Of a DNA stretch of 64,000 nucleotides, positions 24,596 through 37,452 are shown piece after piece. The stretch spans positions 15,828 to 79,827 of the forward strand of contig JAZSJW010000002.1 in assembly GCA_045534555.1 (NCBI GenBank), written 5' to 3'. How positions within the stretch are numbered: position 1 is the first letter of the stretch; the number at the start of each line of letters is the position of its first letter. Below the pieces are notes generated by a model, which saw only the letters and a program-made list of their open reading frames with translations, ran no database searches and had not been told where the DNA came from. A program made the translations under genes and the position numbers. The stretch comes from Clostridia bacterium. GTDB taxonomy: Bacteria > Bacillota > Clostridia > Christensenellales > UBA1242.

Positions 24596-24624
24596 CAGCA
24601 GGCATTATCCGCCCGCTGTTTTTT
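24596..24624 (+). terminator. Rho-independent terminator. It acts on the + strand after the methylase and is also the likely original terminator of the split tRNA on the - strand.
   Basis: The hairpin CAGCAGGC-attatcc-GCCCGCTG is followed by TTTTTT, and an A-run precedes it. Confidence 0.7.
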
Positions 24625-24668
24625 GGTGTAACCGAGACGATTCGAATGTCCGACCTGCCGCTTAGGAG
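24624..24668 (-). pseudogene. 3' part of a disrupted tRNA-Arg(CCU), from the anticodon loop to CCA (attR-like junction)
   Basis: The reverse strand reads CTCCTAA GCGGC AGGTC GGACA TTCGAAT CGTCT CGGTTAC A CCA. It pairs with the 5' half at 37413..37452. Confidence 0.8.
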
Positions 24669-24963
24669 CGCTTCCCAGATGGAATTTTTATAACAATACT
24701 ATTAAACATTCGCAACTATTCAAACATAATAATACCTATCGTTATATGTATATTATATAAAAAATATCTTTTCTTGCAGACAGTATATATTTGGGTACTG
24801 CGTTGGTGACTTTTTAGGCAATTTTACGCTTTGGGTGACTTTTGCTCATTTTACTTCTTTTTATGATTGTGATAGTGACCATGAAAATGCACATGCTTAC
24901 TATTATCATTTTTATTAAAAGAAATATTGTTTGTTGTTTTCTTTACTTCAGTTTTTGGTTGTT

Positions 24964-25149
24964 TTAGTTCGGCATAAGCAATTTTGTTTCAACATTATTT
25001 TTATGTATTTTTTTATTGATATTGCTTATTTTCTTTTCGTCAAAAACAGGATCTAACTTTGAACGTTGATTTCTTAATTTTTGAGTAGAATTATCAGCTT
25101 TTCTAATTCTGTCTTGTGGTGATTTTTTACCAAATAATTTTTCAAACAT
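24964..25149 (-). CDS. Hypothetical small basic protein (61 aa)
   Basis: This is the last gene of a four-gene minus-strand operon. The ATG at 25149 follows GGAGGT. No motif was recognised. Confidence 0.5.
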   Translation of the reverse strand: MFEKLFGKKSPQDRIRKADNSTQKLRNQRSKLDPVFDEKKISNINKKIHKNNVETKLLMPN

Positions 25150-25164
25150 ACTTACCTCCAAATT

Positions 25165-25536
25165 TTATGCAAATTGGCGAAAACATCGCCATATTATTAA
25201 AGCTATAAGAGCGGTAATAGCCAAACCTAAAAGCAGCCACATCCACCAAACTGTACCAACAGTCATAAAGCCCAATACAAATAAATCAATAATAAAATAA
25301 ACTGCACAGTAAGCTATGCTTCCTAACCAAGGACATTCTCCAGGTATATAGAACAAACCAACAACAAAGAAAGAAACTGGAAAAAGTATAAGCCCAAATA
25401 ACCAATTAAAAGTTGTTGAGAAAAACCAATTAAGACTTTCAAATGGATTCGGCACAAAGAATTGTCTTATAAAATAACTAGCAGTGGAAATTGATCCATA
25501 TAAACTTAATTTTTTCATGAAATCATTATAGCACAA
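25165..25536 (-). CDS. Hypothetical integral membrane protein (3-4 TM)
   Basis: Hydrophobic segments run throughout and are Trp-rich (TVWWMWLLLGL). The start codon is uncertain. Confidence 0.55.
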   Translation of the reverse strand: MCYNDFMKKLSLYGSISTASYFIRQFFVPNPFESLNWFFSTTFNWLFGLILFPVSFFVVGLFYIPGECPWLGSIAYCAVYFIIDLFVLGFMTVGTVWWMWLLLGLAITALIALIIWRCFRQFA

Positions 25537-25557
25537 ATTCTTAAAATTTACAATATT

Positions 25558-25935
25558 CTACAGAAATTTTTTAAATCCGGTATATCTATTTGCAGTCGTA
25601 TATCTTTTCTCAACTTGTTCGCCGCCATTGTTTATAACTGCGCAATATCTCGCATATTTAAAAACTTCGCTATTAACAAGTATCATAATATCTGAAATCA
25701 CGCAGCAAAACATTAACACGTGCCACACTCCGTTATCGTCAACATACATATCTTTTTTATATTTGATTACATTGGGATCATCTTCAAGCAAATGACTTCT
25801 GAAATGAATAAACTCTAATTTTGGAAGATATATCGTCCTTTCAACAATATATTGAACTTCTTTACCTTTGTTTTTATCGGTTTTGTTTCTAATTAACTTT
25901 GGATCAGGTATTTTATAAAAGAAGCTTGCTTTCAT
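25558..25935 (-). CDS. Hypothetical protein; it resembles a family I recall from Firmicutes mobile elements (..SE..YARY.A.. motif)
   Basis: The motif NSEVFKYARYCAV is present. The start overlaps the upstream gene by 4 nt (ATGA). Confidence 0.55.
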   Translation of the reverse strand: MKASFFYKIPDPKLIRNKTDKNKGKEVQYIVERTIYLPKLEFIHFRSHLLEDDPNVIKYKKDMYVDDNGVWHVLMFCCVISDIMILVNSEVFKYARYCAVINNGGEQVEKRYTTANRYTGFKKFL

Positions 25936-26174
25936 AATTTTATCTCCTTGATTAACTCAATCGCAAAATCAAGCAACTGATCAGTTTCAATATCATGTAA
26001 ACTACTGACTTCCAAAGATAAATCAAAATATTCCTTCCATTTTTCTTTGCTAAATTCTTTAGTAAATTTATCTTCCATTTCAACAATCTTTGTTAACTGC
26101 AATTGATATTCTGCATTCATTTTTTGTTCTTGAAATCGCTCTTTGATTATTTGAATTATAGTTAGATTTTTCAT
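25932..26174 (-). CDS. Hypothetical small helical acidic protein (80 aa)
   Basis: The ATG at 26174 follows GGAGGGAG. This is the first gene of the four-gene operon. Confidence 0.55.
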   Translation of the reverse strand: MKNLTIIQIIKERFQEQKMNAEYQLQLTKIVEMEDKFTKEFSKEKWKEYFDLSLEVSSLHDIETDQLLDFAIELIKEIKL

Positions 26175-26236
26175 ACTCCCTCCATATCGCTTGACACTAT
26201 AAATCAAAAACCAACAAAAGCCAAGACAATTTCAAA

Positions 26237-26258
26237 ATTATATCATCACAATGATATA
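26237..26258 (-). promoter_or_regulatory. Extended -10 promoter overlapped by a perfect 8-4-8 inverted repeat (candidate operator)
   Basis: The reverse strand has TGaTATAAT (-10 at 26242..26237). The inverted repeat TATATCAT-caca-ATGATATA spans 26239..26258. Confidence 0.5.
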
Positions 26259-26284
26259 GTTTTTGTTTTTTAATGGATATAACA

Positions 26285-35680: not shown

Positions 35681-35743
35681 ATTTTATAATATCTTGTAAA
35701 AATGACAGCTTTATGATAAACTTATGAAATATAAGGAGATATT

Positions 35744-36475
35744 ATGGAAACACTAAATATTTATTGTGATGAAAGTTGTCATTTAAATTATACTTCCGAA
35801 TCTTATATGGGTTTTTCTTGTATTGTTTGCAATCTTGATAAAATAAAAGAAGTAAATCAAAATATAAAAGAATTAAAAATAAGACATGGAATACCGGCTC
35901 ATCAAGAACTAAAATGGTCAAAAATATGCAAAACAAATTATGAATTATATAAAGACGTTATAAATTATTTTTTTATAGATGATGATTTGGCATGTAGGAC
36001 ATTATTAGTAAAAAACAAACATGATTTAAAGTTTACAAAAAGAAATACAAAATCTGACTTTTATTATAAAATGATGTATTTTTTAATAATTAAGTTTATA
36101 AATCCTCATAAACAATATAATATTTATTTAGATATAAAAGATACAAATTCATCCGATAGAATTAATAATTTAAAACAATATTTAAATAGAACAAAATTGG
36201 ATTACAATGTAACAAATACTATTACAAAAATTCAGACAATAAGGTCTTATGAAAGCTGCATTCTTCAATTGTCAGATATATTATTGGGCGCAATAATGTA
36301 TGCTAATAAATATGATGATCAAAATCTTTCCACATCAAAATCAAAATTAGTGCAATTTATTAGAGAAAAATCAAACAAAAAATTAACCATACCAACTCTT
36401 CAAAACGAACCAAAGCTAAATATTTTTATTTCAGATGCTCAAAAAATGAAGCTACGAGGTGAAAATGACTTGTAG
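35744..36475 (+). CDS. DUF3800-like protein
   Basis: The N-terminal IYCDES and the C-terminal ILQLSDILLGAI match my recollection of the DUF3800 pattern. AAGGAG lies upstream. Confidence 0.6.
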   Translation: METLNIYCDESCHLNYTSESYMGFSCIVCNLDKIKEVNQNIKELKIRHGIPAHQELKWSKICKTNYELYKDVINYFFIDDDLACRTLLVKNKHDLKFTKRNTKSDFYYKMMYFLIIKFINPHKQYNIYLDIKDTNSSDRINNLKQYLNRTKLDYNVTNTITKIQTIRSYESCILQLSDILLGAIMYANKYDDQNLSTSKSKLVQFIREKSNKKLTIPTLQNEPKLNIFISDAQKMKLRGENDL

Positions 36476-36947
36476 TATTGCCTCGAAAAAAATTGACTTA
36501 GAAACATTTTCTAATGGTGATTTTGATAAATATGATAAATTTGTTAAACAAAAATTTTATGACGAATTTATAAATTCAACAGTTTATCGTAATGGCAGGA
36601 GAATTACTGCAGGACAAACAGATGCTGAAAGAGAAGAATGTTATAATCACTTAACAACAAAAGGATCCATGGACTCCTCAGTTAGACTGCCTGATCTAAG
36701 AAGATATGAATCTTTATTTATACTTAAAGATATTTTAACAAACAATACTTGTAATAACTGCGATGAATATTTGGTATGGGAGAAAAAAGAAAAATATGTT
36801 AAGGAAAAAATATTTTGCGTTTCTACTGGTTATTTGATAATATTAGCAAAAAGAAATAAGGTATATAAGTTTGTATCAGCTTATCAGATTGATAGTGTTT
36901 CAAAAAAAGAAAAACTGGTTAGTGAATGGCTGAAATATAAAAAATAA
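36465..36947 (+). CDS. Hypothetical protein (160 aa), translationally coupled to the DUF3800-like gene
   Basis: The ATG at 36465 (or GTG at 36459) lies behind GAGGTG, inside the end of the upstream gene, giving an 11-nt overlap. No motif was recognised. Confidence 0.55.
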   Translation: MTCSIASKKIDLETFSNGDFDKYDKFVKQKFYDEFINSTVYRNGRRITAGQTDAEREECYNHLTTKGSMDSSVRLPDLRRYESLFILKDILTNNTCNNCDEYLVWEKKEKYVKEKIFCVSTGYLIILAKRNKVYKFVSAYQIDSVSKKEKLVSEWLKYKK

Positions 36948-36975
36948 AAAAAGAAGAGGTCGCAATTAGCGACCT
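36941..36975 (-). terminator. Rho-independent terminator on the minus strand
   Basis: The 8-bp stem GAGGTCGC-aatta-GCGACCTC is followed on the reverse strand by TTCTTTTTTTATTT. Confidence 0.7.
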
Positions 36976-37027
36976 CAGGACTCATCTCACGCCTAGGTAA
37001 GTGAGCAAATGAAATTCTATTGATTTC
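36945..37027 (-). ncRNA. Candidate small RNA of about 80 nt, function unknown
   Basis: The region is bracketed by a consensus-like promoter (37034..37062) and the terminator at 36941..36975. It has an internal CTCAC/GTGAG stem and no ORF. Confidence 0.35.
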
Positions 37028-37033
37028 ATTAAT

Positions 37034-37062
37034 ATATTACAACATTTAAGCCGGCGTGTCAA
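37034..37062 (-). promoter_or_regulatory. Sigma-70-type promoter facing left
   Basis: The reverse strand reads TTGACA (37062..37057), a 17-nt spacer, then TAATAT (37039..37034). Confidence 0.6.
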
Positions 37063-37208
37063 TAATTTTGAAAAAAATTACAAAAATTAGTTGACAATAT
37101 TTTGTAATATACACTTATATTTTATACCATAACATATGTAAATATTCAAATTTTACTGTCAAAAATTTTAAAAGACGCCGTAAAATAGCGTCTTTTTTCT
37201 TTTTAAAT

Positions 37209-37285
37209 TGGTGTGAGTAAGATGATTCGAACATCCGACCTATCGCTTAGGAGGCGATCGCTCTATCCAGCTGAGCTATACCCAC
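37209..37285 (-). tRNA. tRNA-Arg (anticodon CCU), intact, with CCA encoded
   Basis: The reverse strand folds by hand as GTGGGTA TA GCTC AGCTGGATA GAGC G ATCGC CTCCTAA GCGAT AGGTC GGATG TTCGAAT CATCT TACTCAC A CCA. It is 77 nt and all stems pair. Confidence 0.9.
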
Positions 37286-37412
37286 ATATTATTGAATTTT
37301 TATTGGTTTGGGTGACTTTCTGGTCACTTTTTTATTTTTGTTTGTTTTGTACGATGCAAGAATGTGCGAATTCTTGGGCGATTTAGAATGTTTTTTCAAG
37401 TTGTATTCGGTA

Positions 37413-37452
37413 CTTAGGAGGCGGCCGCTCTATCCTGCTGAGCTACGGCTAC
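37413..37452 (-). pseudogene. 5' half of a disrupted tRNA-Arg(CCU) (attL-like junction)
   Basis: The reverse strand reads GTAGCCG TA GCTC AGCAGGATA GAGC G GCCGC CTCCTAA G, then non-tRNA sequence. The acceptor and anticodon stems pair with the fragment at 24624..24668. Confidence 0.8.

Follow-up and report, generated by a model that had tools for sequence, protein, structure and literature searches.

The 64,000-nucleotide (nt) stretch analysed here (the window) corresponds to positions 15,828 to 79,827 of contig JAZSJW010000002.1, from an uncultured gut Clostridia lineage (GenBank assembly GCA_045534555.1), and holds an island that lies between the two halves of a tRNA-Arg(CCU) gene and carries an intact tRNA-Arg(CCU) of its own. 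The order of features along the locus is rpoB, rpoC, an HDIG gene, gltX, three accessory genes, the orphan 5' half of the interrupted gene (designated S), the island, the orphan 3' part of S, a type II restriction-modification (R-M) module, pfkB and a phosphoketolase gene. Measured between the two core sequences, the island spans positions 24669-37412, that is 12,744 bp. The coordinates of the features are collected in Table 1, where the island-borne tRNA is designated H.

Table 1. Features of the island and its borders in the window (aa, amino acids; ORF, open reading frame)
Feature	Position	Strand	Details
Putative promoter of disrupted host tRNA gene	37475..37502	-	TTGAAA-16-TATACT, TG before the -10 hexamer, 10/12 match
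Orphan 5' half of S	37413..37452	-	acceptor GTAGCCG, D arm, anticodon stem GCCGC, loop
attL core	37413-37420	-	CTCCTAAG, last 8 nt of the orphan 5' half
Island end and 127-nt spacer	37286..37412	-	TACCGA...CTTG next to core, paired GTGACC/GTCACC repeats, then AAACCAATAAAAA
Island-borne intact tRNA-Arg(CCU), H	37209..37285	-	acceptor GTGGGTA/TACTCAC, anticodon stem ATCGC/GCGAT
Intrinsic terminator of island tRNA	37170..37196	-	kept across the subfamily
Cargo slot between integrase and tRNA	35744..36947	+	DUF3800 protein 35744-36475; 162-aa protein 36459-36947
Truncated tyrosine integrase	35036..35680	+	catalytic domain only, 214 aa; Pfam PF00589; alignment; tblastn with L051 integrase
Type I R-M cargo	26419..34721	+	
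hsdR	31689-34721	+	REase_I 5e-291
DUF4145/PD-T7-4-like gene	31027-31668	+	
hsdS	29868-31037	+	Specificity_I 4e-93
PIN_12 gene	28817-29851	+	nuclease-like, 344 aa
Unknown gene	27908-28801	+	297 aa
hsdM	26419-27918	+	MTase_I 6e-198
Four small ORFs at far island end	24964..26207	-	91, 125, 123, 65 aa
Orphan 3' part of S	24624..24668	-	anticodon stem GCGGC, variable loop, T arm with one A:C mismatch, acceptor CGGTTAC, ACCA
attR core	24661-24668	-	CTCCTAAG, within the orphan 3' part
Original intrinsic terminator of host tRNA gene	24590..24624	-	remaining beside the 3' part
Type II R-M module genes	22019-24583		unknown 208-aa gene; HpyAIV-family restriction enzyme 22645-23499; N6/N4 methylase with RAMA domain 23513-24583

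On the minus strand, positions 37452->37413 read GTAGCCGTAGCTCAGCAGGATAGAGCGGCCGCCTCCTAAG, beyond which tRNA sequence ends, and positions 24668->24624 read CTCCTAAGCGGCAGGTCGGACATTCGAATCGTCTCGGTTACACCA. When the halves were joined in silico, ARAGORN called a 77-nt tRNA-Arg(cct) with 7/7 pairs in the acceptor stem (one G-U), 5/5 in the anticodon stem and 4/5 in the T stem. Taken singly and in its present context, neither half gave a tRNA call with this program, and nothing was reported by Rfam at E<=1 for the orphan 5' half. As chance controls, the 5' half was joined to 300 shuffles of the 3' part and to 300 random 37-mers drawn from the window, with 0 ARAGORN calls in each set. The block common to both junctions is exactly the 8-nt CTCCTAAG of the anticodon loop, and since the junctions share only this sequence, no tRNA is rebuilt at either of them, neither being called by ARAGORN or Rfam. 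The attachment site of the element (attP) does not supply the 3' part of the target tRNA, as it does in canonical tRNA-restoring islands, the island sequence that follows the core being TACCGAATAC..., which is not tRNA sequence.

The closest relative available, a metagenome-assembled genome from sheep colon (locus L001; GluRS 83% identical, rpoBC 84% identical in DNA), has an uninterrupted tRNA-Arg(CCU) gene 1.7 kb downstream of gltX, in the same orientation as in the window, with a similar TTGAAAAAA promoter element upstream and with neither an orphan 5' half nor a spacer. The joined halves of S are identical to this tRNA at 73/77 positions, the four differences being one in the D loop and three in the T stem region. 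The exact 40-nt 5' half had no match in a search of one genome per species, L001 differing from it at one D-loop base. H is the sole tRNA found by ARAGORN in the window and scores 65.6 bits with the Rfam tRNA model (threshold 29); it is co-oriented with the host gene, starts 127 nt after the core and has its own terminator behind it. It differs from the L001 tRNA at 12 positions, in the acceptor and anticodon stems. Because the L001 tRNA matches S and departs from H in both stems, the halves of S are taken as the resident gene and H as the foreign one.

An initial annotation of this DNA, made from the letters alone, had proposed that the two pieces are halves of one former gene with mutually pairing acceptor and anticodon stems, that both junctions share an 8-nt core, that the host gene is not reconstituted and that another, complete tRNA-Arg(CCU) is found in the island, 127 nt in from its end, and it had suggested running ARAGORN on the window and on the joined halves. 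All of this was borne out: the program found the intact tRNA and called the join and none of the 600 control joins, and the identity to the uninterrupted L001 gene adds to the case for a single former gene. The same annotation had taken the T-stem A:C mismatch of the 3' part as a sign of decay after inactivation. The mismatch is real. Two of the four differences between S and L001 concern a single T-stem pair, where T:A in L001 is replaced by a compensatory C:G in S, and the fourth, a G to A change beside the compensated pair, creates the mismatch; decay after inactivation thus hangs on a single uncompensated change, with which it is consistent, if weakly.

The island integrase corresponds to residues 250-463 of a 463-aa protein that is intact in loci L051, L014 and L015. 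Its arm-binding and core-binding domains are missing, the breakpoint is clean and unrelated DNA lies upstream, so that the sole recombinase of the island is truncated, as the initial annotation had noticed, and retains the C-terminal 214 of 463 residues. A complete three-domain integrase of the lambda type, which the sister islands possess, was not found in the window, nor did tblastn detect an N-terminal remnant anywhere in it. A split integrase of the SSV type was rejected on the strength of that negative search and because the ORFs at the far end lie on the other strand. The 214-aa form was likewise rejected as a normal short protein, even if the L001 copy has the same length, given that full-length relatives have 463 aa and that the L001 gene has decayed by an internal in-frame deletion plus a stop. 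The island of the window is probably immobile and fixed in place, judging from the state of this gene.

The catalytic domain has been kept alone at four independent loci (window 35036, L016 ~10010, L028 ~10001 and L001 15773). The four cuts lie no more than about 10 codons apart (residues ~245-255 of 463), with different DNA upstream in each case, a type I R-M cassette standing directly upstream of the cut gene in the window and in L016, and the catalytic residues and reading frame are intact. Such clustering may reflect a deletion hotspot or the retention of the catalytic domain for some function. At positions 9629-11029 of L009, an integrase of the window type is split by an in-frame stop and called as two proteins of 85 aa and 342 aa; many database homologues of "339-348 aa" may be interrupted forms of this kind and not a distinct shorter protein.

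The cargo of the window island is dominated by a type I R-M system, with HsdM, HsdS and HsdR encoded together according to both Pfam and PADLOC. Three additional genes are found within the operon (27908-29851 and 31027-31668), coding for the 297-aa, PIN_12 and DUF4145 proteins, and may constitute a composite or accessory defence module. In the slot between integrase and tRNA, the DUF3800 and 162-aa proteins match the candidate defence system PDC-M04 (PDC-M04A, 1.2e-69; PDC-M04B, 3.8e-25). At the far end, homologues of the 125-aa and 91-aa products are encoded at the corresponding position of L016 and L051, and these ORFs are therefore regarded as backbone genes. Virion, packaging and lysis genes, which would mark a temperate phage, were found neither in the window island nor in the complete islands examined.

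Whether this arrangement is peculiar to the window can be judged from its recurrence. Homologues of the integrase were collected with their flanks from 80 metagenome loci and 80 phage contigs, a few more being added by exact look-up; every [C/T]TCCTAA was checked for a tRNA-like 5' half before it and a 3' part after it, and the outcome was combined with ARAGORN calls. The screen returned 36 orphan 5' halves in 34 loci, to which L051 is added (host loop TTCCTAA), giving 35 loci with the same layout of orphan 5' half, short spacer, intact co-oriented tRNA-Arg(CCT) and homologous integrase. Among the metagenome loci, an intact tRNA-Arg(CCT) was present in 39/80 and an orphan 5' half in 33/80. The phage loci with related integrases yielded no intact tRNA-Arg(CCT) (0/80), 2 isolated regex hits and no instance of the layout (0/80). 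Both halves could be seen in 11 loci, the window included, where they lie 5.6-15 kb apart and pair at 7/7 and 5/5 positions; the block shared by the junctions, 8 nt in the window, measures 7-11 nt in the 10 other complete islands and is always centred on the loop. Spacer length is constant within each subfamily, being 126-128 nt in the window type and 132, 168 and 182 nt in others, with 44-55 nt in two further groups. Subfamilies with the same layout have integrases only 37-47% identical. The layout is a strategy conserved throughout a family of islands and not an accident of this locus.

The subfamily of the window comprises, besides the window itself, L009, L014, L015, L016 and L051. Its members share the junction CTCCTAAG|TAYCGA...CTTG, a spacer in which two xxCACC repeats, 11 nt apart, precede AAACCAnTAAAA, the same terminator and closely related tRNAs, with the anticodon stem ATCGC and an acceptor of the form GnGGnTA or GCAGCCG. 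The 5' halves of the island tRNAs are on average 92% identical, and those of the six host genes 56%, with two types of D arm; in another subfamily, a single island tRNA is found with three distinct host alleles (L039, L043 and L053). As the island tRNAs are conserved and the host halves differ, the tRNA must travel with the island, the loop alone being common to all targets. A host gene with U32 in the loop (TTCCTAA) has also been targeted (L051 12311), and the required identity may thus be limited to TCCTAA(G). The allele with the acceptor GTCGGAT, split in L053 (8315), stands uninterrupted in L040 (4389).

Cargo varies across the family. The complete islands examined in other subfamilies encode Fic together with an HNH protein and two Dam-type methylases (L083), HipA with a ResIII helicase and a methylase (L039), an aldo-keto reductase with a LysR regulator and an FGE-sulfatase protein (L062), or a Zn peptidase (L080). 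At the loci of the closest integrase homologues are Kiwa (L011), Hachiman accompanied by a primase-helicase (L009) and a Z1/DUF4420/HATPase/Dcm cluster (L001). The elements are not prophages but small integrative islands, many of them for defence.

The spacer between core and tRNA deserves separate consideration. An alignment of the window with L009, L014, L015 and L016 revealed xxCACC-N5-xxCACC repeats together with a conserved island end, and repeats of this type also occur in L022, whose integrase is only 46% identical. The repeats suggest that the spacer is probably the P' arm of attP, which would explain why the tRNA lies at a fixed distance just beyond it. No terminator in the direction of the tRNA was found in any of the 35 spacers. 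Strong promoter matches at the 35 junctions are mostly located upstream of the host halves (7 vs 1 in a spacer). A promoter of its own for H was considered and found unsupported, the spacer of the window having only a weak 9/12 match and the subfamily no conserved -10 element. The most economical reading of these patterns is that transcription from the host tRNA promoter would run on into H. In the window alone, the spacer repeat at 37310-37329 folds into a plus-strand hairpin with a T run behind it, where sister islands have direct repeats; this hairpin could end transcription of the cargo before it runs antisense into the host promoter region.

Several loci contain more than one island. Nested arrays were recognised in L009, L018, L022 and L037. 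The array in L009 (12893-19000) has three layers, in which a host 5' half is followed by an island end of the window type, by the 5' half of the island tRNA and by a second island; the latter encodes a 452-aa integrase (35-38% identical) and brings a third tRNA, whose 5' half is nearly the same as the original host 5' half (37/39). Further stacking is seen in L022 and L037. In L018 (12128-19155) the orphan 5' half and 3' part fail to pair (4/7 and 1/5), which is best explained by nesting and subsequent loss of the segment between two cores. An integrase of the window type is found downstream of an intact tRNA, with no orphan half, in L001 and L011; we hypothesise that a deletion between the loop of the host half and that of the island tRNA would yield a hybrid with exactly this arrangement, and the L001 tRNA may have arisen from a deletion between two loop copies. 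Positions 13340-15773 of L001 contain, in order, the S-type tRNA, an island-type terminator, a DUF4417 gene, the decayed window-type integrase and the DUF4420/Z1/HATPase/Dcm cluster, the available DNA ending before the far end.

Taken together, positions 24669-37412 of the window are very probably a decayed copy from a family of small integrative islands found in gut Clostridia, whose attachment site is the anticodon loop of tRNA-Arg(CCU). In the proposed mechanism, a lambda-type tyrosine integrase of ~460 aa would recombine attP with the anticodon loop, the 7-nt loop serving as overlap region and the spacer with its paired repeats as P' arm. The island tRNA would then take over the decoding of AGG, its transcription probably starting at the host tRNA promoter and continuing through the orphan 5' half and the spacer. 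With a whole tRNA aboard, the island would have no need to match the acceptor and anticodon stems of its host, and it could therefore enter any tRNA-Arg(CCU), that of a resident island included, giving rise to nested arrays. In the window, a deletion would have removed the N-terminal 249 residues of the integrase along with the backbone upstream of them, so that this copy, which carries a type I R-M system, PDC-M04 and a PD-T7-4-like gene, can most likely no longer move.

Some observations weigh against placing the window in such a family. The initial annotation had pointed to related genomes as the place to look for an uninterrupted tRNA gene, and L001 does have an intact gene near gltX; it belongs, however, to a species other than that of the window, is the sole uninterrupted orthologue found, and is not free of islands, a related integrase remnant, a restriction-type cluster and an island-type terminator lying just downstream of the tRNA. 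Exact-protein look-ups of four flanking genes gave no record, and neither a same-species empty site nor an excised circle was found. Both ends of an island of this subfamily have been seen in the window only, the far ends of L014, L015, L016 and L051 falling outside the available DNA or contigs. Lastly, the tRNA census covers the 64-kb window, and the genome may hold another tRNA-Arg(CCU) gene elsewhere.

Among other explanations, the layout of the window might be a one-off accident in which a conventional 3'-half island excised aberrantly and took along the whole tRNA of a former host plus 127 nt upstream, the tRNA being a mere passenger. In line with this, the terminator after H resembles that after the uninterrupted tRNA of L001 and the region upstream of H resembles that upstream of an H-like tRNA in L009, and such a capture may well be the origin of the family. 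Yet the L009 tRNA with its similar upstream region is itself island DNA, since CTCCTAAG|TACCGA and a host 5' half precede it, and the same spacer, junction and tRNA type recur at six subfamily loci in six different host tRNA genes. Recurrence of the layout across these loci, and across subfamilies with integrases as divergent as those described above, means that any capture is ancient and has been maintained, and an isolated accident is accordingly unlikely. It is more improbable still that a canonical integration was followed by unrelated rearrangements, H being the resident restored gene and the halves of S the debris of a paralogue or of other elements. Islands associated with tRNA genes often pile up and their arrays can rearrange, as the deletion within the L018 array illustrates; against this, the 5' half of S has a strong promoter and sits at the position of the L001 gene, to which the joined S is identical at 73/77 positions and from which H differs at 12 positions in both stems, and the 3' part of S pairs (7/7 and 5/5) with the 5' half of S and not with H. 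The two halves of H pair with each other, and H is therefore not a hybrid of host and island.

The 8-nt direct repeat that flanks the insert would also suit a transposon that struck a tRNA gene by chance and left a target-site duplication, but hardly any probability can be granted to this: the island ends lack terminal inverted repeats, there is no transposase, the sole recombinase being the tyrosine integrase, and random transposition cannot account for the same 7-nt loop sequence at the junction in 35 independent loci. The break falls in the anticodon loop, the site of tRNA introns; bacterial tRNA-Arg(CCU) genes are known with group I introns in this loop, and Nanoarchaeum is known to have split tRNA genes. 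That the halves form a functional split gene, or a tRNA with a giant intron, is nevertheless most implausible, as the 8-nt core is doubled at both junctions, which splicing would not need, the 12.7 kb between the halves consist of protein genes mostly on the opposite strand, Rfam detected neither an intron nor any other RNA at the junction, promoter matches before the 3' part do not exceed 9/12, and the layout is tracked by the integrase family. The comparison data are mostly metagenome assemblies, a circumstance that could favour an assembly artefact or a chimeric contig; the same architecture was, however, obtained in 35 contigs from many independent samples and assemblers, with exact spacing within subfamilies and perfectly pairing halves, so that the chance of an artefact is negligible.

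As regards the surroundings of the island, the type II R-M module (22019-24583) adjoins the terminator of the orphan 3' part, has a low G+C of 0.28-0.31 and may be the remnant of an older island at this tRNA locus. Between gltX and the tRNA locus (38912-40225) lies a gene for a fusion of helix-turn-helix (RstR/Xre-like), AAA_28 and CYTH domains, which is considered accessory because L001 has malQ at that position, and which may be related to defence. Elsewhere in the window, a 1665-aa ORF (11054-16051) had no NCBIfam match, and the 275-aa radical-SAM protein encoded next to it (16542-17369) showed weak similarity to several maturases and to the prokaryotic viperin, all below the curated cut-offs.

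The nearest precedent for the island family is the tRNA-dependent lysogeny described by Guerrero-Bustamante & Hatfull (mBio 2024; PMC10865867) for the actinobacteriophages Fionnbharth/K4, cluster L, CQ2, DL and Gaia/X, in which the core measures 8-17 bp, the host tRNA is not rebuilt and a phage-encoded cognate tRNA is required for viable lysogens (PMC10865867). The islands resemble these phages in several respects. A tyrosine integrase (a PF00589 domain in the window, the 463-aa form in L014, L015 and L051) appears to act on an attB inside a host tRNA gene, to judge from the insertion in the anticodon loop. The core is similarly short (7-11 nt in the islands), so that the host tRNA is not restored to function. 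Each element brings with it a tRNA with the identical anticodon that could replace the one lost, as represented by H (tRNA-Arg(CCT), 65.6 bits) and by its counterparts in 35 loci. In both systems, moreover, the close relatives of the integrase include canonical tRNA-restoring elements. The islands differ in being small, in lacking virion genes and in having defence, toxin or metabolic cargo, as well as in their hosts, which are gut Clostridia instead of Actinobacteria, and in their target, tRNA-Arg(CCU) and not the Lys-TTT, Ile2-CAT or Leu-CAA of the phages. In the islands the tRNA belongs to the attachment module, being placed at a set distance of 44-184 nt from the core and pointing the same way as the host gene, whereas that of Fionnbharth is located elsewhere in the genome, overlaps gene 37 and has its own demonstrated promoter (PMC10865867); the islands, in contrast, likely use the host promoter. 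Nested insertion into the island tRNAs is also a feature of these islands unlike the phage systems. For the phages the tRNA requirement was established experimentally (PMC10865867), whereas the islands are known from sequence alone.

As a rule, islands that target tRNA genes restore them (PMC4383910). The present islands are like canonical ones (Islander/TIGER type; anticodon-loop sublocation class) in having a tyrosine integrase, a crossover in the anticodon loop, a displaced 3' fragment at the far end, the integrase near the tRNA-proximal end and a tendency to stack at one tRNA locus. They are unlike them in that nothing is restored, the 5' half is orphaned too and a whole tRNA is supplied, the departure from the usual 3'-end-duplicating integration that had been proposed for the window from the outset. 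The authors of the 2024 study suspected a broader phenomenon and cited the Lactobacillus johnsonii prophage Lj965 (PMC10865867). In their account of it, this Firmicute prophage fails to rebuild the tRNA upon integration and encodes a cognate tRNA; as presented there, it is a prophage and a single case, unlike the island family. A description of the phenomenon in non-phage islands or in Clostridia was not found in the literature searched (citing papers and related wording), many subscription papers lying outside that search. The principle is already known in phages, and what is new is its occurrence in non-phage defence and cargo islands and in Clostridia, the linkage of the tRNA to attP, the diversity of the host alleles entered and the self-extending nesting.

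It may be asked whether the tRNA on the attP side is an adaptation and not a leftover. On this account, offered tentatively and as possible more than probable when all of its parts are taken jointly, the need for a matching target would shrink to the 7-nt loop, the promoter would be borrowed from the host, each insertion would leave a new attachment site from which nested arrays grow, native alleles would be replaced, and hybrids would link both modes of integration. If true, one island lineage would enter hosts with completely different tRNA stems, the near-universal 7-nt anticodon loop of tRNA-Arg(CCU) sufficing as target, and the native tRNA-Arg(CCU) alleles of gut Clostridia would give way over time to island-borne ones. 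Deletion between loop copies would turn an insertion into a canonical-looking host/island hybrid tRNA, and such hybrids would connect the two integration modes, whose relationship was left open by the 2024 paper (PMC10865867).

The island family has consequences for how such elements are found, used and understood. Island finders look for a regenerated tRNA and a displaced 3' fragment and would miss these islands or misplace their boundaries, for which a 5' half followed by a spacer and by an intact tRNA with the same anticodon provides a simple new search signature. Intact members, with a 463-aa integrase and an attP-tRNA module of about 300 bp, could become compact integration vectors for gut Firmicutes that are hard to engineer, as has been suggested for the mycobacterial systems. 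The family indicates that the mechanism of tRNA-dependent lysogeny extends beyond phages and beyond Actinobacteria, defence and cargo islands of a widespread family employing it in the gut Clostridia of humans and ruminants. The family suggests why an element may replace a tRNA and not repair it, namely for host range, how hotspots of defence islands can extend themselves, with each island adding a site where the next may land, and by what route tRNA alleles can move horizontally.

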